Origin: Bacillota bacterium
GTDB taxonomy: Bacteria; Bacillota; Dehalobacteriia; UBA4068
NCBI GenBank assembly: GCA_024679955.1
Contig: JAILCQ010000010.1
Coordinates: forward strand, 15,277-79,276
Direction: 5' to 3'
DNA length: 64,000 nt
Below the pieces are notes generated by a model, which did no database searches, was not told where the DNA came from, and was given only the letters and a program-made list of their open reading frames with translations. Shown in pieces: positions 6,073 through 24,438 of this stretch. The translations under genes were made by a program, and so were the position numbers. The first letter of the stretch is position 1; every line of letters starts with the position of its first letter.

Positions 6073-8315
6073 GTGGAAATCATCGTAGACCGGCACGCCG
6101 GCTTTTGCACCGGCGTCAGGCGAGCGATCGCGTTGGCGGAAGACGCGGCACATAAATATGGTTCATGCTGCACCTGGGGTCAATTGATTCACAACCCACA
6201 GGAAATCGCCAGGCTGAAAAAAAAAACGTGCTTCCGGTTGAGAACGTTGGGGAAATCCAGTCTCCGTGTTTGGTAATACGAGCCCATGGCGCGGGTCCGG
6301 AGATTTATCATTGGGCGCAAGCGCAGGATTTGACTTTGGTAGACGCCACCTGCCCTTTTGTAAAAAAGGTGCAAAAGACGGCCGTGGAGGCGCAGAATGA
6401 CGGCCGGCAGGTTTATATCGTCGGCGACCCCCATCATCCCGAGGTCCTGGGCATTTGCCAATGGGCCGAAGGGGCCGCGGTCGTTGCGGACGTGCAGGCG
6501 GCCCGGGAAATAGAGGGCGCGCCCCGGGGTTTCGTCCTTTGCCAAACCACTCAAACGGAAGAAAACTTTTCTCTGGTGGCGGCGGTATTGACCGCCAAAT
6601 GCCACGACTGTATCATAAATCGAACGATTTGCCCCAGCACCGTTACCAAACAGCGGGCTGCGGCGGAACTGGCGAGAACCGTGGACGTGATGATTGTTAT
6701 CGGCGGAAAAAACAGTTCCAATACCCAAAAATTGGCAAAAATATGCAAAGCTGCCGGCGCGGAAACCTACTGCATCCAGCGTTGGGCGGATTTGGATATA
6801 AATAAAGTTCGAGGCGCCGGCCGGGTGGGCGTTACCGCCGGGGCTTCAACGCCAGATTGGATTATTGAGGAGGTAGTAGTACAGATGACCGAATTGGAAA
6901 AGACCCAGGATTGCGCAGTGAACGAGGAAAATTTAGAAAAGGAAATTTGCGAGCATGCGGATGCTCTTGAGCAAACGGCGGCTTCCCAGGAAGAGGCCGT
7001 GAATCAGCAGCCGGAAGCGGCTGCCGAAATAGATGCCGCGGAAAACGCGGCCGACGCCGAAGCTTCTCAGGAAGAGGAAGAAAAGAGCCTGGCCGACGCC
7101 TTTGCCGAAGAATACGGCGATATGAAAGAAATCCGCCGCGGCGCCAGAGTCAAAGGCGTGGTGGTACAGGTAAAAGACGACGAATTGCTGGTGGACATCG
7201 GCGGCAAAAGCGAAGGCGTTTTGTCGGCCTCCGAACTGAGCCCGGAAGACGCCAAGAATATCCGGGAAAGATTCCATGTAGGCGACGAGATGGACGTTTT
7301 GATCCTGCGCCGGGAAAATCAGGAAGGTTACCCCATCCTTTCCAAGAAAAGAGTGGATCAGGATATCGCCTGGGATAAATTGGCGCAAATGAAAGCGGAT
7401 AAGGAAATCGTCAGCGGCGTCGTTACCGAAGTGGTAAAAGGCGGTTTGCTGGTGGACGTGGGCCTGCGCGGTTTTGTTCCCGCTTCCCTGGTCAGCTTGG
7501 GCTATGTGGAGGATCTTTCTACCTATGTAGGCAAAGAGCTGCAAATGAAAATCATCGACTGCGATAAGCATAGCAATAAACTGGTGCTTTCCGCCAAAGC
7601 CGTGCTGCGTAAACTGTCCCAGAATATGAAAGAAAAAACCTGGGCGGAGATCGCCGAAGGGCAAACCCGTCACGGCGTGGTGCGCCGTTTGACCAATTTC
7701 GGCGCTTTTGTGGACATCGGCGGCGTAGACGGCTTGCTGCATGTTTCGGAAATGGCCTGGTACCGGGTAAATCATCCTTCGGATCTGCTGAAAGAAGGGG
7801 ATGAGATCGACGTCTATATCCTGGGCGTGGATGCGGAAAATGAAAAAATTTCTTTGGGCCTGAAACAGCTTACGCCCAATCCCTGGACCACCGCAGCGGA
7901 AAAATATCCGGAAGGCAGCGTGATCACCGCGAAAGTGATGCGCACCGCCACCTTTGGCGCCTTCCTGGAAGTGGAACCCGGTGTGGAAGGCTTGGTTCAT
8001 ATTTCTCAAATGGCCCATCATCGGGTAGAAAAAACCGAAGATGTGGTAAAACCCGGCGATATCGTGCAGGTGAAGGTTTTGTCCGTGGATCCCGAAGCCA
8101 AACGGATGAGCCTCTCCATCAAAGCCACCTTGCCGAAAGAAACCGAAGAAGCTGCGCCGGTGGAAGAAGCTGCGCCGGTGGAAGAAGCCGCCCTGGTTGA
8201 GGAAGCTGCGCCGGTAGAAGAAGCTGCCCCGGTTGAGGAAGCCGCGCCAGTAGAAGAAGCCGCCCCGGCGGAAGAAGCCGCCCCGGTAGAAGAAGCTGCG
8301 CCCGATGCCGAATAA
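6073..8315 (+). CDS. ispH: Bifunctional 4-hydroxy-3-methylbut-2-enyl diphosphate reductase / 30S ribosomal protein S1 (IspH-RpsA fusion); reading frame broken by a frameshift in an A10 tract at 6222-6231
   Basis: GTG 6073 with RBS AGGGAG. N-terminal IspH (HAGFCTGVRRAI…) runs in frame 1 to 6276. Continuation (NVLPVENVGEI…ATCPFV…) plus four S1 domains is in frame 3 from 6165. One extra A, or two fewer A's, in aaaaaaaaaa restores a single ORF. Confidence 0.85.
8143..8310 (+). repeat. 9 x 18-bp tandem repeat encoding (EEAAPV)n acidic C-terminal tail of S1
   Basis: gaagaagctgcgccggtg and close variants repeated head-to-tail nine times before the stop at 8313-8315. Confidence 0.9.
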
Positions 8316-8433: not shown

Positions 8434-9813
8434 ATGAAATTATGGGGTGGCCGCTTTGCCGGCACAACCGACAAATTTGCCGAAGACTTTCAGTCTTCTA
8501 TCGGTTTTGATCAACGTTTATATCGGGAAGATATTCAAGGCTCTATCGCCCATGCTACGATGTTGGGAAGCCAAGGGATCATCAGCCAGGAGGAAGCCCG
8601 ACGCATATGCCAGGCTTTGCAGGAGATCGAAAAGGAGATACAAGAGGGGAAAGTGGTTTTCAACGTGGCGGCGGAAGATATTCATATGAATATCGAACAG
8701 TTGCTGACGGAAAAATTGGGCGAACTGGGCAAAAAACTGCACACCGCCCGCAGCCGCAACGATCAAATCGCCGTGGATATGCGCCTGTGGATGCGGGGGC
8801 ATATGGCCGAAGTCCGGGAAAAATTGCTGGATTTGGAAAAGGTTTTGCTGCGCAAGGCAGAGGAGCATGTGGATACGGTAATGCCCGGCTATACCCATTT
8901 GCAAATTGCCCAACCCATCACCTTTGCCCATCATTTGCTGGCCTATGTGCAGATGTTCCACAGAGACCGGCAGCGTTTGGCGGATTGTAGCCGCCGCATG
9001 AATCAGTCTCCCCTGGGCAGCGGCGCTTTGGCCGGCACCACCTTTCCCATCGACCGGCGGCAAACCGCGGCGGCTTTGGGCTTTGACGCGCCTACCGCCA
9101 ATTCCCTGGACGGCGTATCCGACCGGGATTTCCTTTTGGAATACATGGCGGCGGCCTCCATCCTGATGATGCATTTGTCCCGTTTCTGCGAGGAAATCAT
9201 TCTCTGGAGCAGCCACGAATATGCTTTCGTTACTTTGGACGACGCTTTTTCCACCGGTTCTTCCATTATGCCGCAAAAAAAGAATCCGGATATGGCGGAA
9301 TTGATCCGCGGCAAAACCGGCCGGGTGTACGGGAATCTGATGGGCCTGCTGACGGTGATGAAAGGCCTGCCGCTGGCCTACAACAAAGATATGCAGGAAG
9401 ACAAAGAGGCGGTTTTCGAGGCGGCGGATACGGTGCTGGCTTGCCTGACCGTGTTCATCCCCATGCTGGATACCATGCGGATCAATAAGCAGAATATGCG
9501 GAACGCCGCCGGCGGCGGTTTTATCAACGCCACCGACATGGCCGATTATCTGGTCAAGCGGGGATTGCCTTTCCGGGACGCCCATGGGGTGACCGGACGG
9601 CTGGTTTTATATTGCGAGGCCCAGAAGAAAGAATTGGGTCAGTTGACCCTGGAGGAATTGCGCCGGGAATGCGACCTGTTTGACGAGGATCTCTATCAGG
9701 CCATATCCCTGCAGCAATGCGTGGCCGCCCGGGAAAGCGAAGGCGGACCCGCGCCCCGGGCCGTTTTGGCGGCGATACGCCGGGCCAAAGAAGAATTGGA
9801 GCTAAGCGAATAA
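8434..9813 (+). CDS. argH: Argininosuccinate lyase
   Basis: [19 protein letters not shown]… N-terminus and fumarate-lyase signature region. RBS AAAGGGGGAAG. Confidence 0.93.
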
Positions 9814-12612
9814 ATGCATACCTTCGCCGTTTTAGATTTGGAGACCACCGGTCTGGATAGCAAAGGGGACGCCATCATCGAAGTGGCGGCGGTAAAAATC
9901 AAGCGGGGTTTGATCGTGGATCAGTATGCCACGCTGATCCACAGCCCGACGCCGCCGGATGATTTTATCGTGGATTTGACGGGCATAACCCCGGAGATGC
10001 TGTTGGATCAGCCCACCATCGAGGAAGCCATCGGGCCTTTGGCCGATTTTATCGGCGACGCGGTGATTTGCGCCCATAACGCGCCTTTCGACCGGGAGTT
10101 TTTATCCCGCCATTGGCAGGATCAGCGGGAATGGCTGGATACTTTGACTTTGGCGCAAATCGTTTACCCCTGCCTGCCCAGCTATTCTTTGGCCTGGCTG
10201 GCGGAGACCCTGGGCGTGGAGAACCCTTCCGCCCATCGGGCCCTGGCGGACGCCCTGACCACGGCGCAGATATTTATTCACTTAAAGAACAAGATGAAGA
10301 CCCTGCCGGCGGCGGCCCGCCAGGATCTGCTGCAGCTGGCCGGCGATGACGAGACGCCTTTGTGCCAACTGATCCGCCGGGAATGCTCTTTGCCCGGCGC
10401 GGCCCCGGCGGCGGCCCCGCAAGGGGAAAAACCTCCGCTTTTTTGCGGCGACCATCCGGCCCCGCAGCCGGATTTTCGGATAGAGCCTGAGGAAATCGAA
10501 AGCTATCTGGGGAAAAACGGGCGCTTTGCCGCCGCCATGGAGCATTTTGAATACCGGCCGCAGCAGGTGGAAATGTCCCAGGCGGTGGCGGACGCTTTCC
10601 AAAACCGGCAGTTTTTATTGGCCGAGGCAGGCACCGGCACCGGTAAATCCTTGGCCTATTTGCTGCCCGCCGCTTTGTTTACCGCCGGTTCCGGCTACAA
10701 AGTGGCCATTTCCACCCATACCAAAAATTTGCAGGAACAACTGCTGCACAAGGATATCCCGCTGCTATGCCAATTGTTGGACCGTCCTTTGTCCGCTGTA
10801 CTGCTGAAAGGGCGAGGCAATTATCTTTGCCGCCGCCTGTACCGCTATCTGCTCAGGCAGCCGCCGGAAAGCATGCGCTATTTCCTGATGCGCATCGCCG
10901 TATGGCAGGCAGGCACGGAAAGCGGCGACGGCGACGAATTGCTGCTGAACGGCTATGATCAAGGCCGTTGGCAGGCGATTTGCGCTTCCAAGGACAATTG
11001 CGCCGTATTTTGCCCCCTGCGCAAAAGCGGCGCTTGCTATGTGCAGAAATCCCGCATGGCGGCAAACGACAGCGATATTTATATTCTCAACCATTCTCTG
11101 TTGACGGCCAACGCCGCCATGGAAAACGCCGCTTTGCCGCCGTTTTCCTATCTGATCATCGACGAAGCCCACCATTTGGAAAAAGCCGCGGAGGCGCAAT
11201 TGACCGCCACGGTGGACTTTTATGCGCTGCTGAACCTTTTGGGCCGTTTGCGGCGGCATGAAAAAGGCAAGGAAACGGGCTGCATCCGCAGCTTGCGCCA
11301 TGCCTGCGACAGCATTTTCCTGCCGGAAGGCAATAAGGAGCTTTTGCTGCGGAAAATCGACGGTTTGGAAGATGGCCTGGAGCAGTGCCTGTCGGCGGCG
11401 GAAGCATTCTTTGCCCTGACGCAGCAGGCCTTTGCCGCCGAAGCGGCCAGACAAAGCTATATGCCGGCCACCGTACGCCTGTTGCCCGCCCATTACCGGC
11501 AGGATTTTTGGCCGCTTTTGCAGGACAAGGGGGCCGCTTTGCAGGGGGCATTGAACGCCCTGGCCCAGAGTATGTTTGCTTTGCAGGAAGACCTTGCCGC
11601 TTTGGCAACGGAAGGGGACGCCGACCCTGCGCCCATGCCCGGAACCGGAGAATTGCCGGGACTGACGGCTCAGGCCCGGGAAATCGCCGCTACCGTAGGC
11701 CGCTGCCTGGCGGAGGAACAGGAAAATTATGTGGTGTGGCTGCGCTTCGGTGAAGGGGAGAGAAAGCCCTCCTGGCATATCGCGCCCATCGAATTGGCGG
11801 AAATTTTGCAGGATCGTTTGTTCAGCCGCTGCGATTCCGTGGTTTTGACTTCCGCCACCATGGCGGCGGGCGCTTCCTTTTCTTTTTTCAAACGCCGCCT
11901 GGGGCTGGATCTGTTACCGGAACCGCCTGTGGAAAAGGTTCTGCCCTCGCCCTTTTTCTATCGGGAACAGGCGTTGTTCACGGTGGTGAACGACTTGCCG
12001 GATTGGAGCAAGACTTCGGAGATCCTGGCGGTAGAGGCCATTTCCGCCTCCCTGACGGAGTTGCTGGCCGCCTCCCGGGGCCGGGCCTTGGTTTTGTTCA
12101 CCTCCCATCAGCAATTGCAGGCCGTATACCGGCAAATCCGCCGCCCCCTGCTGCAGCAGGGCATACAGGTGCTGGCTCATGGCGTCAACGGCGGGCCGGT
12201 GCAATTGCTGCAGCGGATGAAGCATGAGCCCTGCTGCGCCGTGTTGGGTACCAACAGCTTTTGGGAAGGGGTGGACGTGGCCGGCGAGGCCCTGTCCCTG
12301 TTGGTGATTGTGCGCTTGCCTTTCTCCCCGCCCAATAATCCCCTGACCGCCGCCAAATCGGCCAAACTGGAAGCCGAGGGGCGTTCCTCTTTCGCGGAAT
12401 ACAGCTTGCCCCAGGCCATCCTCCGCTTCAAGCAGGGCTTTGGCCGTTTGATCCGCAGCGGCGAGGATTGCGGCCTGTTTTGCGTTTTAGACAGGCGCAT
12501 CGTGGATAAACAGTACGGCAAACGCTTTATCGACGCCCTGCCGCCTATGGAAAGACGGCAAGGGTCCAGCCGGGATGTAGCCGCCTGGATCCGGGAATGG
12601 CTGAACGGTTAA
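9814..12612 (+). CDS. dinG: DinG-family ATP-dependent helicase with N-terminal DnaQ-like 3'-5' exonuclease domain
   Basis: N-terminus FAVLDLETTGL…HNAPFDREFL (DEDD exonuclease). Then AGTGTGKS Walker A, DEAHH box and C-terminal helicase domain. 932 aa. Confidence 0.9.
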   Translation: MHTFAVLDLETTGLDSKGDAIIEVAAVKIKRGLIVDQYATLIHSPTPPDDFIVDLTGITPEMLLDQPTIEEAIGPLADFIGDAVICAHNAPFDREFLSRHWQDQREWLDTLTLAQIVYPCLPSYSLAWLAETLGVENPSAHRALADALTTAQIFIHLKNKMKTLPAAARQDLLQLAGDDETPLCQLIRRECSLPGAAPAAAPQGEKPPLFCGDHPAPQPDFRIEPEEIESYLGKNGRFAAAMEHFEYRPQQVEMSQAVADAFQNRQFLLAEAGTGTGKSLAYLLPAALFTAGSGYKVAISTHTKNLQEQLLHKDIPLLCQLLDRPLSAVLLKGRGNYLCRRLYRYLLRQPPESMRYFLMRIAVWQAGTESGDGDELLLNGYDQGRWQAICASKDNCAVFCPLRKSGACYVQKSRMAANDSDIYILNHSLLTANAAMENAALPPFSYLIIDEAHHLEKAAEAQLTATVDFYALLNLLGRLRRHEKGKETGCIRSLRHACDSIFLPEGNKELLLRKIDGLEDGLEQCLSAAEAFFALTQQAFAAEAARQSYMPATVRLLPAHYRQDFWPLLQDKGAALQGALNALAQSMFALQEDLAALATEGDADPAPMPGTGELPGLTAQAREIAATVGRCLAEEQENYVVWLRFGEGERKPSWHIAPIELAEILQDRLFSRCDSVVLTSATMAAGASFSFFKRRLGLDLLPEPPVEKVLPSPFFYREQALFTVVNDLPDWSKTSEILAVEAISASLTELLAASRGRALVLFTSHQQLQAVYRQIRRPLLQQGIQVLAHGVNGGPVQLLQRMKHEPCCAVLGTNSFWEGVDVAGEALSLLVIVRLPFSPPNNPLTAAKSAKLEAEGRSSFAEYSLPQAILRFKQGFGRLIRSGEDCGLFCVLDRRIVDKQYGKRFIDALPPMERRQGSSRDVAAWIREWLNG

Positions 12613-14672: not shown

Positions 14673-15445
14673 ACATATTATTAACCAATGATGACGGAAT
14701 ACAATCTTCCGGTTTGCGCATATTGGCGGAGGCGCTGCTGGAATTGGGCGACATATATATCGCCGCCCCTTCCCTGGAACAAAGCGGCGTCAGCCATGGT
14801 CTTACCGCCCATGTGCCATTGCGGGCGCATCGGATAGACTATGCGGCAGCCGTCAAATGCGCCTGGTCCATAGACGGCACGCCGGCGGATTGCGTCAAGC
14901 TGACAATCGAAAGATTGCTGCCGCAAAAGCCGGATGTGGTGATCTCCGGGATCAACTTTGGGGCAAATTTGGGCACGGATGTGATTTATTCGGGAACGGT
15001 GGCCGGCGCTATGGAAGGCTATTTGTTCGGCCTGCCGGCCATGGCCCTGTCGGTCACCGGCATACGCCGGGGCGTGGGCCAAGGGAATTTTGCCTATGCC
15101 GCCCGGCTCTGCCAACAAATATGCCTGACCTGGCAGCAGCAGGATTTTAAGCCCCGCACCATGTTGAACATAAACGTGCCTGGGCAAAACCCGCAGGAGA
15201 TCAAGGGCGTTCGCTTTACCCGCCTGGGTTGGCGCTGGTATCATGACGCCTATGAGCAAAGGCTGGATCCCAATGGACGGCCCTATTACTGGCTGCAGGG
15301 TACCGCTTACGACGGCGAAGATCCGGGGGATACGGACGTATCCGCCTGCCGGGAAGGCGTGGTATCGATCACCCCTTTGTTCAATGATATGACCGATACG
15401 GCCGCCTTGCAAACGCTGCAGCATACTTTTGACCTTCCGCGTTGA
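14669..15445 (+). CDS. surE: 5'/3'-nucleotidase SurE
   Basis: MNILLTNDDGIQSSGL N-terminus. 4-nt overlap with lepB stop. Confidence 0.9.
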   Translation: MNILLTNDDGIQSSGLRILAEALLELGDIYIAAPSLEQSGVSHGLTAHVPLRAHRIDYAAAVKCAWSIDGTPADCVKLTIERLLPQKPDVVISGINFGANLGTDVIYSGTVAGAMEGYLFGLPAMALSVTGIRRGVGQGNFAYAARLCQQICLTWQQQDFKPRTMLNINVPGQNPQEIKGVRFTRLGWRWYHDAYEQRLDPNGRPYYWLQGTAYDGEDPGDTDVSACREGVVSITPLFNDMTDTAALQTLQHTFDLPR

Positions 15446-15635
15446 CGGAGATCGCATAGATATATGGAACCATACATAGAGAAGAAATGCTTACAAAGCC
15501 GTCCCGGGACGGCTTTTTCTTATGCCCGAAAAGATGCTAAGCTGCCAGCCCAAAGCTGCCTCCCGGTGGCGGAGATATCCGTCATTCGGGGCAGGGAGGG
15601 GTTGCGCCCGGCGGTCGCTTTTTCGCAAAATAATA

Positions 15636-15676
15636 AAAACGCGTGATCTTACAAGGAAGATCACGCGTTTTATAAT
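15636..15676. terminator. Bidirectional terminator between surE (+) and the minus-strand methyltransferase operon
   Basis: AAAAACGCGTGATCTT-ACAAGG-AAGATCACGCGTTTT with flanking A and T runs. Confidence 0.8.
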
Positions 15677-15715
15677 CTGCATTTTCAGCCGATCGAATAT
15701 ATCATCCCGATGGGC

Positions 15716-16819
15716 TTAGGCCAGGATTTCTTTAAAGGCAGCAACCAGTTTTTTGTTCATTTCCATGGTGCCGATGCTGATCCGGGAGCAGGTGGGGCAA
15801 TTCCAGCCGCCGCCCACGGCGATCAACAGGCCTTGACGGCGCAATTTGTCGGCGATTTCTCTGGCGTCCCGATGGAAATCCACAAAGATAAAGTTGGTGT
15901 AGGAAGGTTGGCAGGTGAAGCCCATGGCGGTAAATTCTTTGGTCAGATATTCTTTACCTTCTTTGTTCACCGCCAGAGTCTTATGCAGGAATTCTTCGTC
16001 GTCCATGGCCGCCAAAGCCGCATCCTGGGCCACACGGTTCACGGCAAAATATTCCACGGTCCGGCGCATCAATTCGATCAGGTATTCCGGTCCCATGATG
16101 TAACCGATACGGCAGCCGGCCATACCGAAGATTTTCGATAAGGTACGGATGACCAGGACTTTTTTACCGGCATTTACATATTGCAGGCTGTTGGGATAAT
16201 CGGCGGCGTCCACAAATTCCGCATAGGCTTCGTCAAATATCACGATCACATTGTCCGGAATGTCTTTCATGAATTCTTTGACTTCATCTTCTTTGACAAT
16301 GGTGCCGGTGGGGTTATTGGGGTTGCAGACCATGATCAGCTTGGTTTTGGGCGTGATGGCCGCTTTTATGGCTTTCAGATCCACGGTGTAATTTTTCAGG
16401 GGAACCGTGACCAATTTGCCGCCTACCAATTGCACCGTGGTGTTATAAACGAAGAAATGGGGGCTGCCGACGATCATTTCTTCCCCTTCGTTGAGGAAGG
16501 TTTCCGTCAGCATCAGCAAAACATTGTCTGCGCCGTTGCCAAACAATACTTGCATTTCGTCAATGCCGTTGGCTTTGGCCACTTTGCGGCGCAATTCGGT
16601 GCAGGTGGCGTCAGGATAAAGGAAAACGTCTTTGGCATGTTCCTGAATCGCCGCGATGGCTTTGGGAGAAGTGCCCAAAGGATTTTCATTGCAATTAAAA
16701 GACAATACTTCTTTTAAGTTGAATTCTTTTTTCAATTCTTCATTGGTTTGTTCCGGCAGATTGGGGTCGTTTCCCAAGATACAGGGTCTTACCAGTTCAG
16801 CGCCTTTGACATTAGCCAT
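15716..16819 (-). CDS. Class-II (HisC/CobD-family) PLP aminotransferase; last gene of the minus-strand methyltransferase transcription unit
   Basis: 367 aa with NPNNPTG and SKIFGMAGCRIGY motifs. HisC versus threonine-phosphate decarboxylase CobD cannot be distinguished by eye. Confidence 0.8.
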   Translation of the reverse strand: MANVKGAELVRPCILGNDPNLPEQTNEELKKEFNLKEVLSFNCNENPLGTSPKAIAAIQEHAKDVFLYPDATCTELRRKVAKANGIDEMQVLFGNGADNVLLMLTETFLNEGEEMIVGSPHFFVYNTTVQLVGGKLVTVPLKNYTVDLKAIKAAITPKTKLIMVCNPNNPTGTIVKEDEVKEFMKDIPDNVIVIFDEAYAEFVDAADYPNSLQYVNAGKKVLVIRTLSKIFGMAGCRIGYIMGPEYLIELMRRTVEYFAVNRVAQDAALAAMDDEEFLHKTLAVNKEGKEYLTKEFTAMGFTCQPSYTNFIFVDFHRDAREIADKLRRQGLLIAVGGGWNCPTCSRISIGTMEMNKKLVAAFKEILA

Positions 16820-16933
16820 GTTGCATACCTTCCTCTCGGTTAAAATTTGATACCAAAACGGTTTTTTTATAAGATGAGGCCAAGAAGTGATAACCTCTTG
16901 GCCTCATGCCATACCAAAGTGAAACGATTAAGA

Positions 16934-18310
16934 TTAGTAAATGAAGTTGACGCCCATCTTGGCGACTTCTTCTTTACATTTGTAGAACAGATCCAGGTAT
17001 TCGGGCTTGGGAACGCATTTGAGCACGTCGTAAGCTTCATGGAAGGGCACGCCATAGTTGTCATGCGGGATCTTCTCTTCGTATTTGGCCAAGAGTTTGT
17101 TGACAACTTCGCTGGCTTCTTCGCGGGTCATATGCTGCGCAACTACGCTGTGGGCAACTTCCGCGGCGAAGCGGGCTTCCAAGGGAGTACCATGGTTGTG
17201 GATCTTGTTGCGGCAGGGCGCGCAGGTCCACAGGTTGTTACCGGAAACGACGCTGGAAATAGCATGGGCAGCGCCTTCATAGAACAGCATGTCGGTCATG
17301 GGGCCGGCATTGGCGAAGCAGTTGGAGTCGTTGACCAGATGGGTGTTGCGGGCAACGGCTTGGGTGTAGGCGCTGATGATCCACAGCATCTCTCTGCCGG
17401 TGTTGGAACCGTAGAGGAGATGGAAGGGGAAGTTCTGGGAGAAGGAAGCGCCGTATACGCACAAACCTTGGAGAATGAAAGCGATCTGCAGGATGGCGGT
17501 ACCTTCCGCGCCGCCGGCATAACCGCCGTAGATGGCGCCGGGCAGGATGGCGCAGAGGTTACCCATTTGGTTGTAATGGATCGCTTTGTTCAGCATCTGG
17601 TTGTTGGTCATCAATTCGGTGATACCGCCGCACAGACGGGCGTCGCCGGCGCGTACACCCCATTGATCGTTGCTGACCGCGATCTGGGCCATATCGGATT
17701 CAGCAGTACCGACGGCTACGAAGAAGACGTCGGGACGGCCGGCCAAACGGGCGGTTTCTCTCAGGGTCATGGCATGGTGCATGGAGCCGCCGATTTCCAG
17801 CGGGAAGTGAGAGGTCATGGGACGTCCCATGAAGTCGCCCAGCAACGGGGAGCAAATGCCGTCCAGCAAGGGCTCTTTCAGGTAAGACAAGCAGGCGTTG
17901 AAGAAGACCTGTTCGTCATAGGTGATGTCCGGGCTCATGATGATGAACGGTTTTTCGGTATCTTCGACTTTGCGGTGACCGTAACGACGGAGGTCATGGT
18001 TTTTGCCGACCAGGTAGTAAGAAGGCGCGGCAAACAAATCTTCGTTGACTTCCCGTTCGTCAAATTCGATCACGCGATGGGTATCTTGGTTGTAAACGCC
18101 GACCGTGAGGAACAGTTCTTTACCGGCTTGCCAAACTTTGTCGGCCAGCTCGTCGCTGGTGTTGACCGGTTTGGACAGGTCCGCTTTGATCTCGTATTTG
18201 CGGATCAATTTTTTGATGGTCGGCATCAAGCTCTTTTTAACAAAATAATTTTCTTCCATGAAGGGGCCGTTTTGCGCCCGTTCCATTACTTCCCAAAGTC
18301 TAACTGCCAT
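16934..18310 (-). CDS. MtmB-family (monomethylamine:corrinoid methyltransferase-like) MT1, 458 aa, no in-frame UAG/pyrrolysine codon
   Basis: Colinear similarity to archaeal MtmB: GVYNQDTHRVIEF, IYGGYAGGAEGTA, LLYGSNTGREML, NAGPMTDMLFYEGAAHAI, TPLEARFAAEVA, EAYDVLKCVPKPEY. Same length as MtmB. The region aligned to the Pyl site reads LAGRPDVFFVAVGTAES. RBS GGGGGTG. Confidence 0.8.
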   Translation of the reverse strand: MAVRLWEVMERAQNGPFMEENYFVKKSLMPTIKKLIRKYEIKADLSKPVNTSDELADKVWQAGKELFLTVGVYNQDTHRVIEFDEREVNEDLFAAPSYYLVGKNHDLRRYGHRKVEDTEKPFIIMSPDITYDEQVFFNACLSYLKEPLLDGICSPLLGDFMGRPMTSHFPLEIGGSMHHAMTLRETARLAGRPDVFFVAVGTAESDMAQIAVSNDQWGVRAGDARLCGGITELMTNNQMLNKAIHYNQMGNLCAILPGAIYGGYAGGAEGTAILQIAFILQGLCVYGASFSQNFPFHLLYGSNTGREMLWIISAYTQAVARNTHLVNDSNCFANAGPMTDMLFYEGAAHAISSVVSGNNLWTCAPCRNKIHNHGTPLEARFAAEVAHSVVAQHMTREEASEVVNKLLAKYEEKIPHDNYGVPFHEAYDVLKCVPKPEYLDLFYKCKEEVAKMGVNFIY

Positions 18311-18325
18311 TTATCTACACCCCCG

Positions 18326-18964
18326 TTATTTTTGTACTAAATTGTTTACCAGCGTCACGGCTTCCGCAGCACTTTCGGCCCAACCGTCGGCGCCGATATC
18401 TTTCGCCCAATTGGGATTGGTGGGCGCGCCGCCAACGATAACTTTGAATTTGCCATACAAGTCTTTGTCTCTCAAAAGATTGATCACTTCGGTCGCGCCG
18501 GGCATGGTGGTGGTCATCAAAGCGGAAACGCCGATAACGTCGGCTTCGTTTTCAACGGCTTTGTTGACATAATCAATGGCGGGGACGTTTTTGCCGAGGT
18601 CAACTACGTCAAAACCGTCAGCGGTCAAAACGGTGACAACGATGTTCTTACCGATTTCATGCATGTCGCCAGGGGCGGTGCCCAGAACGACGGTGCCTTT
18701 CTTTTGGATGTCGCCGCTTTCCGCGAGGACGGGTCCAAAGATGTCCATGGCGGCGACCATGGCGTCGGCGGACAGGATCATTTCGGGCAGGAAGATTTCC
18801 ATAGCTTCGAATTGACGGCCCAGTTCACGCATGGTGTCGGTGAGCTTTTCAATAACGGGTTTCAGATCCGCTTTGGCATCGACGATTTCCTGTGCCGCTT
18901 CAGCGGATACTTCGTCGTCGCCATCCATGATGGCTTCAGTTAATTTCTTGATGCTTTCTTCCAT
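18326..18964 (-). CDS. Cobalamin-binding corrinoid protein (MtmC/MtaC-like)
   Basis: 213 aa from ATG with RBS GGAGGT. N-terminal helical cap domain, then a B12-binding Rossmann domain with GDMHEIGKNIV (DxHxxG) and VIGVSALMTTTM. 15 nt upstream of the MT1 gene. Confidence 0.88.
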   Translation of the reverse strand: MEESIKKLTEAIMDGDDEVSAEAAQEIVDAKADLKPVIEKLTDTMRELGRQFEAMEIFLPEMILSADAMVAAMDIFGPVLAESGDIQKKGTVVLGTAPGDMHEIGKNIVVTVLTADGFDVVDLGKNVPAIDYVNKAVENEADVIGVSALMTTTMPGATEVINLLRDKDLYGKFKVIVGGAPTNPNWAKDIGADGWAESAAEAVTLVNNLVQK

Positions 18965-19177
18965 AAATATACCTCCATTTTTTGTTCTGCTGCAAGCAGA
19001 TGAAAGAAGTTCCGCTTGCGTCCCCCTCCGACAGAAACCGTCCCGGCCATGGGAACATGTCCCAGGCATAGGCCAAGACATAAAGATAATAATTTATCTT
19101 GATGAAACTATTTTATCACATGAGAAAAAAAACTACAATAGGTATTTTATAAAAATTGAAAAAAATTGCCGAAAAAA

Positions 19178-20806
19178 TTATTCCGCTTTGATCCGGGGAA
19201 AACTCATGGCGCCGATGAACTCTTCCTGAAAATTGGGACAGTCGGCCAATTCCACATGTTCGATCTCCGCCAGCTTGTTGTAAATGTACTGCCGCTCCTT
19301 GGAGGACAGCAAGGCGATGGAGGAGCCTGCGCCGGCGGCGTTGCCCAGAGGAATGATATGATCCAAGGGAATATTGGGCAGCAGCCCCAAAACCACGGCG
19401 CTTTCCTTATTAATAAAGTTGCCGAAAGCGCCGGCCAGCAGCACGGTGTCGATATCCGCCACGGTTTTGCCGGCGGCCTGCAGCATCAGCAGGATGCCGC
19501 TGTAGATGGCCCCTTTGCCCAATTGCATTTGCCGTACGTCTTTGTGGTTGAGGACGATTTCCCGTCCGTCGTCGCCTTGGGCCAAAACGAACTCGGTGAT
19601 ATTGTCTTCGGTCTTGTGCAAACGCCATGCCAGATCCGGCGGCAATTCCTGCTGCGCCGCTTTCTGGCTGATCATTTTGCCGGAGGGCAGGATGACGCCG
19701 GCGGTGATCAGCGCCGCGGTGGCGTCGATCAGGCCGGAGCCGCAAATGCCCCTGGCTGGCGCGTCGTCTACGGTATGCACCAGCAGCTTGCCTTCGATGA
19801 CCTTGACGCTTTCAATGGCGCCGGCGGCGGCCCGCATGCCGTGATGGATGGAAGCCCCTTCAAAGGCCGGGCCGGCTGCGGTGGAGCAGGCCCAGGTATG
19901 GCCGTCGGCCTGCAGGATCACTTCGCCGTTGGTGCCCAGGTCGATGAGGATATGCACGCCGCTTTTTTCCATCAGGCGGGAGGTCAATATGCCCGCCACC
20001 AGGTCGGAACCTACATGGCCGGCGATATTCGGCAGCAAGTAGACGTCGCCTTCCGGATGGATGCGAATGCCGATCTCCGTGGCTTTTAATTCCTTGGGGC
20101 CGGTAAAGGCCGGCGTAAAGGGTATCCTGGCCAGGGTGGAAGGGGAGAGGCCCAGGAACAAATGGCTCATGGTGGTATTGCCAACCACGGTGGCTTTGCG
20201 GATTAAGTCCCGCTGGATGGAATGCCTTTCGATCAGCGTATCCGCCAGTTCGTTGAGACAGCCGATGATTTTATCGTGCATGACCTGCAGATTGCCGGGC
20301 TTTTCTTCGCAGTAGTTGATCCTGGTGATGACGTCCGCGCCGAAAACGCTCTGAGGATTGGTTTGGGCGGCAATGTCGATCAATTCTGCCTCTTTCATAT
20401 CCCACAGCATACATACCACGGTGGTGGTGCCGATATCGAAAGCCAGACCGTAGCATTGCTCTGCGGTTTTTTCCGGTACGAAATCATCGGGGAAATATAA
20501 CAGTTTGGTCTTGCGGGCGTCGGCGTTTTTCATCTTCGGCACCAGGATGCGCATATTGTCTATGACATGCACCCGGCAGGCCAGGCGATAGCCCTGATCC
20601 AATTCTTCTTGAGGGATCAGCTCCTTTTCCGCTTCGTCCGCCGGCGGGGTTTTGCCGGAAACCACCTGGATCTTGCAGCAGCCGCAAACGCCGGCCCCGG
20701 CGCAGCTGCCGTCGATATGTATACCGGCCTCGAACAATACCTGCAGCAAAGAGGTGCCTTCCGCTACCTGGCATTTGATATTATTGGGCAAAATGGTTAT
20801 TTCCAT
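19178..20806 (-). CDS. ramA: RamA-type reductive activator of corrinoid proteins (N-terminal 2Fe-2S ferredoxin + ASKHA ATPase domain)
   Basis: 542 aa. N-terminal CAGAGVCGCC…C ferredoxin cysteines. DIGTTTV and LIDLGTNGE actin-fold phosphate motifs. RBS AAAGGAG. Confidence 0.85.
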   Translation of the reverse strand: MEITILPNNIKCQVAEGTSLLQVLFEAGIHIDGSCAGAGVCGCCKIQVVSGKTPPADEAEKELIPQEELDQGYRLACRVHVIDNMRILVPKMKNADARKTKLLYFPDDFVPEKTAEQCYGLAFDIGTTTVVCMLWDMKEAELIDIAAQTNPQSVFGADVITRINYCEEKPGNLQVMHDKIIGCLNELADTLIERHSIQRDLIRKATVVGNTTMSHLFLGLSPSTLARIPFTPAFTGPKELKATEIGIRIHPEGDVYLLPNIAGHVGSDLVAGILTSRLMEKSGVHILIDLGTNGEVILQADGHTWACSTAAGPAFEGASIHHGMRAAAGAIESVKVIEGKLLVHTVDDAPARGICGSGLIDATAALITAGVILPSGKMISQKAAQQELPPDLAWRLHKTEDNITEFVLAQGDDGREIVLNHKDVRQMQLGKGAIYSGILLMLQAAGKTVADIDTVLLAGAFGNFINKESAVVLGLLPNIPLDHIIPLGNAAGAGSSIALLSSKERQYIYNKLAEIEHVELADCPNFQEEFIGAMSFPRIKAE

Positions 20807-21009: not shown

Positions 21010-21062
21010 TTGTATTCCCTCCGTTTTTTTGGTAATATATTAGGGTAGATCATGTATGATCT
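21010..21062 (+). promoter_or_regulatory. Promoter (TTGTAT-17-TAATAT) with a 16-bp palindrome AGATCATgtATGATCT at the predicted start site: candidate operator of the YheO-type regulator gene
   Basis: TTGTAT 21010-21015, TAATAT 21033-21038. Perfect 7-bp inverted arms at 21047-21062. Confidence 0.5.
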
Positions 21063-21156
21063 GCTTTTGTGTCTATTTTTTTCTTCGCCATTCGACGCCG
21101 GGTCCCAAGCCCTCCGGCAGACAAAACCAACGTTTGGCGGCTGCGGAGGTATCGCT

Positions 21157-21804
21157 GTGCATGAAAAACTGAAATTCTATTTGGACTTTGCTGAGTTTTT
21201 AGGCAAATCCGTGGATAAGAATACCGAAGTCGTTTTGCATGAGACGGTAGGCGACAATCCCGGTATCGTATATATTTATAACGGATATGTCAGCGGCCGG
21301 CAGGTCGGCGCGCCGTTAAGCGAGTTTTCTCAGGAAATGGTCAACAATAAAGAAGACCATTCCCTTTACCGCGTCAATTATGCCACGGTGGCCAACGATG
21401 GCAGCATCCTTCGTTCGTCCAGTTTCTTTATCCGCGACGACGACAATACGCTGCTGGGAATATTGTGCATCAATTCCAATGTTTCCCAGTACCTGCAGCT
21501 CAGCGAACAATTGCGGGAGCTGGCCGGGCTGTCTTTTGATGAAGAAGTGTCGGACGGCGACGATACGCAAATCTATCTGACTTCCGCCAAAGATGTTATA
21601 TTGGAAAATATCCAAAGCATTTTGACTGATATGAACGTCAACACACCGCCCAACCGTTTGACCGCCGCCGAAAAACAAATCGTCATCAATGTGCTGCACA
21701 AACGGGGTATTTTCAATCTAAAGGGATCCGTGGCCAAGGTGGCGGCCATCATGTGCGTTTCCGAGCCGACGATATACCGCTATTTGCCGAAAAGCAATCT
21801 GTAA
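21157..21804 (+). CDS. YheO-type transcriptional regulator (PAS-like sensor + C-terminal HTH)
   Basis: Matches E. coli YheO blocks (VVLHE…, GYVSGRQVGAPLS, LLGILCINSNV, EKQIVINVLHKRGIFNLKGSVAKVAA…EPTIYRYL). GTG 21157 preceded by GGAGGT. Upstream ATG 21052 lies inside the promoter/operator. Confidence 0.78.
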   Translation: MHEKLKFYLDFAEFLGKSVDKNTEVVLHETVGDNPGIVYIYNGYVSGRQVGAPLSEFSQEMVNNKEDHSLYRVNYATVANDGSILRSSSFFIRDDDNTLLGILCINSNVSQYLQLSEQLRELAGLSFDEEVSDGDDTQIYLTSAKDVILENIQSILTDMNVNTPPNRLTAAEKQIVINVLHKRGIFNLKGSVAKVAAIMCVSEPTIYRYLPKSNL

Positions 21805-21994: not shown

Positions 21995-23356
21995 ATGAAC
22001 GGAAAAGAATTACTGTTTGAAGTGTTGCGTCATCATGACACGCCGCGGGTTCCTTGGGTGCCTTTCGCCGGTATCCATGCCGGTAAACTGGCCAACTACA
22101 CCGCCCAGGAAATCCTCATGGACGGAGACAAACTCTTTAAATCCCTGATGGAGGTCAACAAAATTTACCGTCCCGACGGACAACCGGTATTGTTCGACCT
22201 GCAAATGGAAGCGGAAATTTTGGGCTGCGAATTGCTGTGGGCCGAATACGCGCCTCCGTCCGTAATGAGCCATCCCCTGGAAAACACCAAAACCATTCCC
22301 TGCTCCTGCACCATTCCGGAAAAAACCGACGGACGTCTGCCCATGGCCTTGGACGTCATGCGCCGGATGAAAGAGGCCGTTGGCGAAACCACCGCTTTGT
22401 ACGGCCTGACCACCGGTCCTTTGACCCTGGCTTCCCATTTGCGGGGCACCAATCTGTTCCGGGATATGCGCAAAGACGGCGAATATGTAAAAGAGCTGTT
22501 TAATTACTGCAACGAAGTCAACAAAGCCATGGCGGACTACTATATCGAAGCCGGCATGGACGTGATCGCCGCCGTTGACCCGGTATTGTCCCAGATCTCC
22601 GCCAAGCACTTTGAGACTTATCTGATGGATTGCTATACGGATCTGTTCAACCACATCCGTGAAAAAGGCGCTTTTGCCGCGTTCTTCGTCTGCGGCGACG
22701 CCACCCGCAACATCGAAGTGATGTGCCAATCCGGTCCGGACTGCATCGCCGTGGACGAAAACGTCAACATGGCCCAGGCCAAGGAAATCACCGACAAATA
22801 CAATATCGCCCTGTGCGGCAATATCCCGCTGACCACCACCATGTTGTTCGGCACCCAGCAGGACAATATGAAATACGCCTTGGAAATGCTGGATACCCTG
22901 AATCATCACAACCTGATTATTGCCCCCGGCTGCGATATGCCCTATGATATCCCCATCGAAAACACCGTGGGTGTGGTACAGGCCCTGCATGAACCGGAAC
23001 AGGTTCGCGAAATCCTCAAGAACTACGAAGCGCCTATCGACGAAGACGTGGATGTGGAACTGCCGGATTACAACAATCTGCCCCGTCCTTTGGTGGAAGC
23101 CTATACTTTGGACTCCGCTTCCTGCGCCGCCTGCACCTATATGTATGCCGCCGCTATGGACGTCAAGAAACATTTCGGCGACAAAGTCGACGTGGTGGAA
23201 TACAAATACATCAACAAGGAAGATATCCCGCGCTTCAAAAAGCTCGGCATCCAGCATCTGCCCAGCCTCTTGATCAACGGCGAACTGAAATATTCCTCCA
23301 TCATTCCCGAACGGCAGGAATTGTTTGATGAAGTCGAAAAACTCTTGAACAAATAA
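21995..23356 (+). CDS. URO-D-family methylcorrinoid methyltransferase (MtaA/MtbA-like MT2) fused to a C-terminal thioredoxin-like CxxC domain
   Basis: Residues about 1-340 show the URO-D/MtaA pattern (…LIIAPGCDMPYDIPIENT…). Residues about 355-453 (LVEAYTLDSASCAACTYMY…VDVVEYKY…LPSLLINGELKYS…) give the beta-CxxC-alpha / cis-Pro-beta thioredoxin_3 / glutaredoxin-like pattern. RBS AGGAGG. Confidence 0.8.
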   Translation: MNGKELLFEVLRHHDTPRVPWVPFAGIHAGKLANYTAQEILMDGDKLFKSLMEVNKIYRPDGQPVLFDLQMEAEILGCELLWAEYAPPSVMSHPLENTKTIPCSCTIPEKTDGRLPMALDVMRRMKEAVGETTALYGLTTGPLTLASHLRGTNLFRDMRKDGEYVKELFNYCNEVNKAMADYYIEAGMDVIAAVDPVLSQISAKHFETYLMDCYTDLFNHIREKGAFAAFFVCGDATRNIEVMCQSGPDCIAVDENVNMAQAKEITDKYNIALCGNIPLTTTMLFGTQQDNMKYALEMLDTLNHHNLIIAPGCDMPYDIPIENTVGVVQALHEPEQVREILKNYEAPIDEDVDVELPDYNNLPRPLVEAYTLDSASCAACTYMYAAAMDVKKHFGDKVDVVEYKYINKEDIPRFKKLGIQHLPSLLINGELKYSSIIPERQELFDEVEKLLNK

Positions 23357-23466: not shown

Positions 23467-24438
23467 ATGTTTAAGATTTCTGACGAAGGTATGAGCATTG
23501 CCAGCGGCAGGATCAAACTGTATATCGTCAACGGCTTTTTGGGCGCCGGCAAAACCACGATGATGCAGCAATTGATGGACGTTTGGCATGACAAAAAAAT
23601 GGCAATCATCGTCAACGAATTCGGCGACGCCGGCATGGACGGCGCCGTTTTGGCCCAGGAAGGCATCAAATTAACGGAGATCAATAACGGCTCCATATTC
23701 TGCACCTGCCGGGCGGAGAATTTTATCGAAGCTTTGGTACAGATGACCAATTTAGACGTTTCCTTGGTGCTGGTAGAAAGCTCCGGTCTGGCCAATCCCG
23801 CCGGCGTGGGCAAAATCGTTTCTTTGGTGCAAAAAATGACCAATGACAGCTATGAGTATAAGGGCAGCCTGACCATGGTGGACGTCCTGGGCTTCTGGGA
23901 TGTGCGCTATACCTCGGTCATGGCGCAGCAGCAGGTGATCTGCAGCGATCTGCTGGTGGTGAATAAAATCGATTTGGCCACAGAAGAGGAAATCGAAGAA
24001 ATCGAAGCGGAATTGCGCCAGATGAACCCCTATGCCGATATCGTTCGCGCCACCTTTGCCAAAGTGGACCGCAAAGTCTTCGACCAGATGGACGGACATT
24101 ACAGCGCCAGCGACCGCAACTGGGGTGGCGGCAAAGTGATCGGCACCCAAAAATGGCTGGTTTCCTTCAAAGGCGATTACCGTCAGGAAGATGTGGAACA
24201 ATGGCTGAAGCTGATCGCCCCCTATATGTACCGGGCCAAAGGCTTTGTGAAGATCGACGGAGCCTGGCATTACATCGACAGCACCAATACCTTGATCAGC
24301 ATCAAGGATACCAATATCGAGCCGGAAGAAGACAGCGCGGTGATTTTGGCCCCCGGTAATCAGCCCATCAAAGAAAAAATGGACGAAGCCTGGAAACAAG
24401 TCTTCGGCGGCAGCGATAAAGAACTGGTCTATATGTGA
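23467..24438 (+). CDS. COG0523 / CobW-family G3E GTPase (metallochaperone-type)
   Basis: GFLGAGKTT Walker A, a Cys-x-Cys metal motif (SIFCTCRAE), VVNKIDL G4 box and a C-terminal CobW_C-like domain. Partial hairpin terminator between it and the MT2 gene. Confidence 0.8.
   Translation: MFKISDEGMSIASGRIKLYIVNGFLGAGKTTMMQQLMDVWHDKKMAIIVNEFGDAGMDGAVLAQEGIKLTEINNGSIFCTCRAENFIEALVQMTNLDVSLVLVESSGLANPAGVGKIVSLVQKMTNDSYEYKGSLTMVDVLGFWDVRYTSVMAQQQVICSDLLVVNKIDLATEEEIEEIEAELRQMNPYADIVRATFAKVDRKVFDQMDGHYSASDRNWGGGKVIGTQKWLVSFKGDYRQEDVEQWLKLIAPYMYRAKGFVKIDGAWHYIDSTNTLISIKDTNIEPEEDSAVILAPGNQPIKEKMDEAWKQVFGGSDKELVYM

Follow-up and report, generated by a model that had tools for sequence, protein, structure and literature searches.

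A pyrrolysine-free MtmB homologue from a Bacillota genome belongs to a widespread bacterial clade whose gene neighbourhoods suggest demethylation of methylated histidine

Introduction

The monomethylamine methyltransferase MtmB (EC 2.1.1.248) of Methanosarcina barkeri contains pyrrolysine (Pyl), encoded by UAG, at position 202, and its gene lies beside that of its cognate MtmC-like corrinoid protein, among methanogenesis genes. A published tree holds 1,061 MtmB proteins with and without Pyl, mostly without known function (PMC13044021). Here we describe a Pyl-free member of this superfamily, which we call MT1 (first methyltransferase). It is encoded in a stretch of 64,000 nucleotides (the window) from a Bacillota bacterium of the lineage Dehalobacteriia, UBA4068 (GenBank assembly GCA_024679955.1, contig JAILCQ010000010.1, positions 15,277 to 79,276 of the forward strand; coordinates below are those of the window). 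MT1 belongs to a clade whose gene neighbourhoods suggest that its substrate is a methylated histidine.

Pyl-free MtmB homologues are already known as a category. In Methanococcoides methylutens Q3c, the protein MtqB (ACT9XH_RS04775, NZ_CP199767.1) removes methyl groups from tetramethylammonium and choline; its authors presented it in 2026 as the first role for an MtmB without Pyl, and it is reported to branch near the Pyl-containing MtmBs (PMC13044021). Like MT1, MtqB is a Pyl-free first methyltransferase with an adjacent corrinoid protein, and it shows that a protein of this fold does not need Pyl to methylate Co(I). Unlike MT1, it is archaeal and feeds coenzyme M and methanogenesis.

In bacteria, a non-MMA (monomethylamine) role was suggested for Ga0180325_111810 of Ca. 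Formimonas warabiya strain DCMF, a non-Pyl MtmB-superfamily protein that was the one most increased on dichloromethane and is about 30% identical to other family members (PMC9768040). Like MT1, it is a Pyl-free MtmB homologue in a Peptococcaceae-type Firmicute.

A parallel is found in the non-Pyl members of the MttB superfamily (MtgB, MtcB, MtpB and MtyB), in which the loss of Pyl also goes with a switch to another methylated amine within a three-component corrinoid pathway. These proteins belong to a different family from MT1, and their known substrates are all quaternary amines. A preliminary description of the window had compared MT1 with these non-Pyl MttB homologues; the analogy is correct, and the concept had been published (PMC13044021, PMC9768040). 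MT1 itself is an uncharacterised member of the category within a standard corrinoid methyl-transfer system.

Results and discussion

MT1 is an intact member of the MtmB family. The gene is the following feature:

16934-18310, minus strand: Pyl-free MtmB-superfamily methyltransferase MT1, 458 amino acids (Pfam, PDB and fold matches)

The open reading frame occupies exactly these positions, starting at an ATG and running through 458 codons with zero internal stops, and a ribosome-binding site (GGGGGTG) lies 8 nucleotides 5' of the start. The preliminary description had placed the gene exactly, leaving its minus-strand orientation unstated. The sole Pfam match of the protein was PF05369 (MtmB; 292.4 bits against a cut-off of 25, E 7.9e-87, profile positions 3-449 of 450). 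The MttB-superfamily (COG5598) profile PF06253 was not matched, and no NCBIfam model claimed the protein. The HMMER match to M. barkeri MtmB in the PDB (1L2Q/1NTH) had an E value of 1.3e-43.

The predicted fold of MT1 is that of MtmB. An AlphaFold2 model made from an alignment of 64 clade sequences had a mean pLDDT of 94.9 and a pTM of 0.94, and Foldseek superposed it on the TIM barrels of 1L2Q/1TV2/1NTH with a TM score of 0.95 and a root-mean-square deviation of 1.5 A over 454 columns. The next matches, MtgB (2QNE, 9YCE) and MttB (7XCL), had TM scores of only 0.48-0.56. Per-column counts in an alignment of 134 superfamily sequences indicated that MT1 keeps the family-wide motifs: GRPG before the Pyl strand, D223, E232, GGYAGG, E269 and AGPxT. 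Six sequence blocks had been put forward earlier as evidence of MtmB ancestry, along with the segment AGRPDVFFVAVGTAES aligned to the Pyl-containing loop. The HMMER alignment contained all six and the segment, in the same order as in M. barkeri MtmB1, which has the same length, 458 residues. Sequence identity between MT1 and MtmB is only 24-29%. The refutation proposed at that time, a spurious similarity between different folds, fails given the match of the model to 1L2Q/1NTH.

The conservation pattern effectively refutes the idea that MT1 is left over from a Pyl-dependent gene and is decaying or no longer functional. The loss of Pyl is the only point in favour of such decay. Compared with the orthologue in its nearest relative (L011, below), 86 codons differed synonymously and 25 non-synonymously, indicating purifying selection. 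Fifty-five columns of the 64-sequence clade alignment were invariant across phyla. The intact frame with its ribosome-binding site, the high-confidence model and the complete set of accessory genes described below likewise argue against a relic.

An antisense open reading frame of 497 amino acids (16847-18340, plus strand) spans all of MT1, is longer than it, and was the one chosen by a longest-frame caller. We rejected it as an artefact because it had no family support, in contrast to the Pfam, PDB and fold matches of the minus-strand frame. The antisense frame was also open in homologues from 16 loci, and we treat it as a consequence of codon usage.

Valine or isoleucine takes the place of pyrrolysine in the clade members inspected. 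Both pairwise HMMER alignment and a MAFFT alignment of the 134 superfamily sequences paired Pyl202 of MtmB with Val198 of MT1 (AGRPGMGV-X-GPETSLS in MtmB, GRPDVFF-V-AVGTAES in MT1). Val198 is at the end of a beta-strand (196-198) in the model, which fits with the anchoring of Pyl202 on a barrel strand in MtmB (PMC9842639). The equivalent position was V or I in 10 of 10 clade members inspected and was at least 90% conserved in the 64-sequence alignment; the clade motif is [FLM][VI]A[VA]GTAE.D. The absence of Pyl, which the preliminary description had reported, therefore stands: there is no in-frame UAG, and a miscalled TAG, which it had named as a possible refutation, is not credible given the conserved V/I and the excess of synonymous differences. 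There were no pyl genes among the open reading frames scanned in the window, and a tRNA scan of the 64 kb found no tRNA genes and hence no tRNA-Pyl.

Other residues of the predicted pocket differ from those of MtmB. In the alignment, E205, E229, E259 and Q333 of MtmB, which we take to surround Pyl (our literature search gave no confirmation), correspond to G201, L226, L256 and N330 in the MT1 clade. The clade-invariant residues E204, R225, H297, N334, N368 and K369 appear to lie near strand ends of the model and, together with N330, are candidate ligands for an amino-acid-like substrate. Judging from the alignment, such a pocket would be compatible with a zwitterionic amino acid.

These substitutions bear on the proposal, implied by database names, that MT1 is a true MMA methyltransferase doing without Pyl. 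The source annotation is 'monomethylamine:corrinoid methyltransferase', MtqB has trace MMA activity (PMC13044021), and L008/L009 have Pyl-type MttB and MtbB genes, split by UAG, next to a clade gene and no visible Pyl-MtmB. We regard the proposal as highly improbable, because the three glutamates presumed to line the Pyl site are G, L and L in the clade, because no NCBIfam model claims the protein, and because the clade neighbourhoods are histidine-catabolic and not methylamine-related. Furthermore, strain DCMF carries a clade member and is unable to grow on MMA (PMC9768040). All of this, including the Q333 to N change, fits the earlier suggestion of a different substrate or catalytic solution. 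The name 'monomethylamine:corrinoid methyltransferase', which is carried by hundreds of database proteins, is probably wrong for the MT1 clade and would inflate the methylamine use inferred for sediments, the subsurface and symbionts.

MT1 belongs to a discrete and tightly conserved orthologous group within a very diverse superfamily. A word-indexed search found 432 relatives, the closest being 89% identical (Clostridiales MAG, metagenome-assembled genome), followed lower down by a Dehalobacterium MAG (70%), Ca. Formimonas warabiya (62%) and a broad shelf at 51-56% from Aminicenantes, Anaerolineae, Chloroflexota and Desulfobacterales. When 1.84 billion representatives of 50%-identity clusters were scanned exhaustively with HMMER, 869 family clusters emerged. 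Among these, the MT1 clade had one full-length representative (54% identity, 559 bits), and the best full-length match outside it fell to 37% identity and 302 bits, which is the basis for treating the group as discrete: identity is at least 50% within the clade and does not exceed 37% with family clusters outside it. The nearest relative was L011, a Peptococcaceae MAG (contig CASEQE010000044), in which MT1 is 95% identical in amino acids and 90% in nucleotides. The surrounding island is syntenic with the window at about 84% nucleotide identity.

The nearest outgroup clades, L091 (P0121, 37% identity) and L092 (P0122), are likewise Pyl-free. Their neighbours are genes of the amino-acid type: a tautomerase, an aminotransferase and Ldh_2 for the former, an AbgT-family transporter and an amidohydrolase for the latter. 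N-methyl amino-acid substrates may be a wider theme among bacterial MtmB homologues.

The position of the clade also bears on whether MT1 is an MtqB-like methyltransferase for choline or tetramethylammonium. MtqB is the only characterised non-Pyl MtmB, all characterised non-Pyl corrinoid amine methyltransferases take quaternary amines, and bacterial members have been reported in the MtqB branch (PMC13044021); MttB-family genes also adjoin 30 clade loci. However, the clade is only 25-29% identical to MtmB1, whereas MtqB reportedly branches near the Pyl-MtmBs. MtqB is therefore probably outside the clade, as judged indirectly from its reported branching. Other non-Pyl representatives were 41-43% identical to MtmB1, and no family cluster outside the clade was more than 37% identical to MT1. 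In addition, a quaternary-amine substrate would leave the hut, HutP and aminotransferase neighbours of the clade unexplained, and no follow-up genes for choline, trimethylamine (TMA) or dimethylamine (DMA) were seen in the window. We therefore consider this reading very unlikely; the neighbourhoods point to histidine and not to choline.

The corrinoid protein-MT1 pair was the constant core of the clade loci, and its recurrent partners were genes of histidine catabolism. A scan of 185,579 species genomes gave 80 loci, and exact-protein look-ups gave ten more. Counts are for 85 non-duplicate clade loci (1.23 Mb in total), in which neighbouring open reading frames were clustered by all-against-all BLASTP and the clusters were named with Pfam and NCBIfam. 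The hosts of the 80 loci were Peptococcaceae, other Bacillota, Synergistaceae, Actinomycetota, Anaerolineae/Chloroflexota, Aminicenantes, Bipolaricaulota, Aerophobetes, Spirochaetota, Gemmatimonadota, Myxococcota and many Desulfobacterales, and the carriers included Desulfocicer vacuolatum DSM 3385 (L056), which is in culture, and a symbiont of Olavius. The neighbours were:

Corrinoid protein: 72 of 85 loci
MttB-family gene: 30 of 85
Second methyltransferase (MT2) of the URO-D type: 27 of 85
Cytoplasmic Mo-bisPGD oxidoreductase: 26 of 85
Divergent GntR regulator, best NCBIfam match HutC: 21 of 85
Polar-amino-acid binding protein: 17 of 85
RACo: 15 of 85
hutH/hutU/hutI: 14 of 85
CobW: 13 of 85
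HisC-like aminotransferase: 7 of 85 (Firmicutes, Spirochaetes and Desulfobacterales)
IorAB: 5 of 85
HutP: 3 of 85, all Firmicute

The hut assignments were specific. Representatives scored above the NCBIfam equivalog cut-offs (HutH 694 against 539, HutU 435 against 375, HutI 454 against 298), and 10 of 10 HutH-like proteins matched TIGR01225 (hutH). The hut-linked loci came from Actinomycetota, Bacillota, Anaerolineae and Desulfobacterales, with differing gene orders. Three of them were tight, same-strand arrangements: corrinoid protein-MT1-HutU-HutH with gaps of 23 and 89 nucleotides in an Anaerolineae locus (L041), MT1-HutH-HutI in a Bacillota locus (L024), and MT1-HutH-HutI-FTCD_C-HutU in an Actinomycetes locus (L021). 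We estimate that chance would place a hut cluster within 10 kb at fewer than one locus in 85, since such a cluster takes up about 5 kb in a genome of several Mb.

The three hutP loci had leaders of the kind expected for histidine-responsive antitermination. In strain DCMF (L001), a Dehalobacterium MAG (L004) and L006, UAG repeats abut an intrinsic terminator between hutP and the corrinoid protein-MT1 genes. The L001 leader reads TAGATGGTTAGCGAATTAG-GGGGCATGTTTAAG...CTTAAACGTGCCCTTTTTTT. The triple-TAG motif was complete in L001 and L006, in equivalent layouts, and L004 had two TAGs with a 4-nucleotide spacer. The leaders are at 9090-9215 in L001, 6600-6730 in L004, and 8540-8600 and 9245-9320 in L006; the background frequency of the triple-TAG motif over all loci examined was 0.012 per kb per strand. 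In the Bacillus hut operon, HutP acts as an antiterminator once L-histidine has activated it, and these leaders have the layout expected for HutP control of that kind.

The DCMF clade member (P0029, at about 5.37 Mb of CP017634) is in a HutP-corrinoid protein-MT1-GlcDF-NhaC-aminotransferase cluster and is the protein 62% identical to MT1. It and Ga0180325_111810 are probably different paralogues. The DCMF proteomics supplements had no match for HutP, MtmB or histidinol-phosphate (PMC9768040).

At loci without hut genes, the recurrent partner was a HisC-family aminotransferase. Often, for example in L004, L054, L061 and L068, it is followed by a 2-oxoacid:ferredoxin oxidoreductase of the IorAB type together with an ADP-forming acyl-CoA synthetase; L022 has the latter two without the aminotransferase, and the window and L011 have the aminotransferase alone. 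Together, the three activities form a route that is standard in anaerobes for turning an aromatic or heteroaromatic amino acid into its arylacetate, with a gain of ATP.

Because this module is generic for aromatic-type amino acids, it would also suit an MT1 that demethylates some other N-methylated amino acid or amine, such as an N-methyl aromatic amino acid, sarcosine or dimethylglycine, or a thio-histidine derivative (ovothiol or ergothioneine, once desulfurised), with histidine as one of several downstream links. The genes beside the nearest outgroup clade (P0121) fit this broader possibility, as do those of L007 (tautomerase, aminotransferase and AFOR) and the Mo-oxidoreductase modules present in 26 loci of several phyla. 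However, HutH, HutU and HutI are specific for histidine, and were above the equivalog cut-offs where scores were read; the HutP and HutC-type regulators also indicate histidine, and the fact that members from different phyla share at least 50% identity favours one conserved substrate. Substrates of this other kind seem to us unlikely, if credible.

The window encodes a full corrinoid methyl-transfer set. The minus-strand unit has the order RACo, corrinoid protein, MT1, aminotransferase and terminator (the first four in the same order in L011), and the remaining components are on the plus strand:

15636-15671, minus strand: terminator-like hairpin with U-tract closing the unit after the aminotransferase (strong terminator)
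15716-16819, minus strand: class I/II aminotransferase of the HisC family, immediately downstream of MT1 (TIGR01141 score 298.8 bits, cut-off 276.6)
16874-16907, minus strand: perfect 12-bp hairpin without U-tract in the 114-nucleotide MT1-aminotransferase spacer (RNA folding)
18326-19081, minus strand: corrinoid protein (B12-binding_2 and B12-binding), mechanical open reading frame of 251 amino acids (domain matches, homologue lengths)
19178-20806, minus strand: reductive activase for corrinoid proteins, RACo type ([2Fe-2S] Fer2, Raco_middle and RACo_C_ter; domain matches)
21052-21804, plus strand: YheO-like regulator (PAS_6 and HTH_22), divergent (domain matches)
21995-23356, plus strand: MtaA/CmuA-family (URO-D fold) MT2 with a C-terminal thioredoxin-like domain, CAAC motif (domain matches)
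23467-24438, plus strand: CobW/COG0523-type metallochaperone GTPase (family match)

The corrinoid protein, whose presence next to MT1 the preliminary description had assumed, is real: in addition to its B12-binding domains it has the motifs DMHEIG (DxHxxG, corrinoid-binding), SALMTTT and VGGAP. Its true start is probably Met40 (about 18964), giving 212 amino acids, because the first 39 residues have no counterpart in homologues of 212 amino acids. That start would leave a spacer of about 210 nucleotides after the RACo gene.

The MT2 has FVCG where MtaA (4AY7) has HICG, so that HxC becomes FVC: both cysteines are retained and the histidine, presumably a zinc ligand in MtaA, is replaced by phenylalanine. 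A CobW-type GTPase next to the URO-D gene was conserved in many related loci. The second methyltransferase differed by lineage, being URO-D with CobW, a Pterin_bind protein, or a homocysteine-S-methyltransferase domain. The use of a URO-D MT2 with a thioredoxin-like domain, of RACo and not RamA as the activase, and of histidine-catabolic partners sets this bacterial system apart from that of MtmB.

The aminotransferase of the window is 50-52% identical to those of DCMF and Dehalobacterium. The 71-nucleotide stretch with the hairpin upstream of it folds at -27.7 kcal/mol (z -5.25), and the hairpin could serve for partial termination, for processing or for stabilisation. In a scan for consensus promoters and terminators the counts were no higher than in shuffled sequence, and we used only the strong terminator after the aminotransferase. 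An Rfam scan of 12-28 kb of the window found no element, and so no cobalamin riboswitch.

Based on these components, we conclude that MT1 is, by sequence and model, the predicted substrate-specific first methyltransferase of a bacterial corrinoid-dependent demethylation system with the MtmB TIM-barrel fold. We propose that it is a methylated-histidine:corrinoid methyltransferase that releases L-histidine, with a probability of roughly 0.5, because the corrinoid protein-MT1 core is tied to hutHUI, HutC-like regulators, HutP leaders and HisC-type transamination. No report of this activity came up in the literature that we searched. RACo would reduce the corrinoid protein to Co(I). The barrel cavity of MT1, with Val198 in place of Pyl and the clade-specific polar residues as candidate ligands, would bind an N-methylated histidine, the methyl group being on the alpha-, pi- or tau-nitrogen, or a hercynine-breakdown intermediate, and MT1 would hand the methyl group to Co(I). 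The MtaA-like MT2, probably metallated by the CobW-type GTPase, would then move it to tetrahydrofolate or a thiol and into C1 metabolism. The freed L-histidine would be deaminated by the adjacent HisC-family aminotransferase or, in other phyla, enter the Hut pathway. The frequent MttB-family and Mo-oxidoreductase partners hint at a more decorated feedstock (hercynine, ergothioneine or ovothiol) in some lineages.

Several points weigh against methylated histidine as the substrate. The proposed activity is read from gene context and the roles of the pocket residues from alignment. Neither hut genes nor HutP occur in the window itself, and its aminotransferase, which passes the housekeeping hisC model, could be a biosynthetic HisC placed there by chance. 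No histidine marker was present within 10 kb in 62 of the 85 loci, although many of these 62 are on short contigs. The MttB-family genes and the Mo-bisPGD oxidoreductase point to a substrate that is more complex or of another kind, such as a betaine or a thio-histidine. Finally, set against the quaternary-amine precedent, acting on a secondary amine or a methyl-imidazole would require chemistry new to this group of enzymes.

We put forward more tentatively the wider proposal that the clade is the first corrinoid-dependent methylhistidine demethylase, an anaerobic route spread laterally over at least eight phyla that sends the methyl group to the C1 pool and histidine to Hut or a transaminase. 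Possible sources would be anserine or balenine, actin-derived 3-methylhistidine, hercynine or ergothioneine, and ovothiol after a Mo-enzyme step, and the clade would be the first non-Pyl amine methyltransferase with a substrate other than a quaternary amine. If the histidine link holds, a large orphan clade in the MtmB superfamily, where MtqB alone has a function so far, would gain one, and methylated histidines would be seen to have an anaerobic sink that has gone unrecognised. The rule that loss of Pyl means a new methylated-amine substrate would also carry over from the MttB to the MtmB family, with an amino-acid substrate. What we add is a specific prediction, demethylation of methylated histidine, for a widespread clade labelled monomethylamine methyltransferase; the compounds are commercially available and at least one carrier is in culture, so the prediction is open to direct test.

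Additional features of the clade loci and the window

A universal MttB partner, as part of a hercynine chain, was considered and set aside as weakly supported. The MttB-family neighbours formed one clade in 17 Desulfobacterales loci and were 30-41% identical to those in other phyla, with no single conserved orthologue across phyla.

The Mo-bisPGD oxidoreductase (about 690 amino acids) was often in the operon of the clade member itself. Its best matches were Fdh-alpha, PhsA and NasC, all far below cut-off, and it is accompanied by a PadI/DmsB-like ferredoxin and in many cases by a PadH/NirB-like flavoprotein. It is at about 12.2-17 kb in L048, L058, L063, L071, L074 and L084, at about 1.5-4.2 kb in L046, L052, L077 and L080, and also present in L016, L018, L020, L023 and L033.

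A conserved protein of about 252 amino acids with a Cys-rich C-terminus (CRRCRMKNC) is encoded directly 3' of the MtmB-like gene in 20 loci, for example at 11448-12206 (plus strand) in L083 and 17749-18507 (plus strand) in L033. It had no match in Pfam or NCBIfam and, by eye, loosely resembles the MetH reactivation domain.

In L008/L009, a split Pyl-type MttB (125 and 330 amino acids) and Dimeth_Pyl/MtbB (354 and 109 amino acids) are at 15217-18109 on the minus strand, at most 7 kb from the Pyl-free clade member. The same organism thus uses Pyl for its TMA and DMA enzymes and has an MtmB homologue without it.

Five loci of Anaerolineae and Chloroflexota (L032, L034, L035, L036 and L053) have a PF02574 homocysteine S-methyltransferase-domain protein just upstream of the corrinoid protein-MT1 pair, followed by an MFS transporter. 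This suggests that the methyl group may pass straight to methionine there.

The remainder of the window encodes the housekeeping functions of a spore-forming Firmicute: fchA-folD, an ispH-S1 fusion, argH, a DinG-like helicase, folE, lepB, surE, dpaA, asd, dapA, RNase J, spoVT, uvrA/C, rapZ, whiA, gap, pgk and gpmI. The fusion, unrelated to MT1, is a 716-amino-acid LytB/IspH protein with four S1 RNA-binding domains (6165-8315, plus strand).

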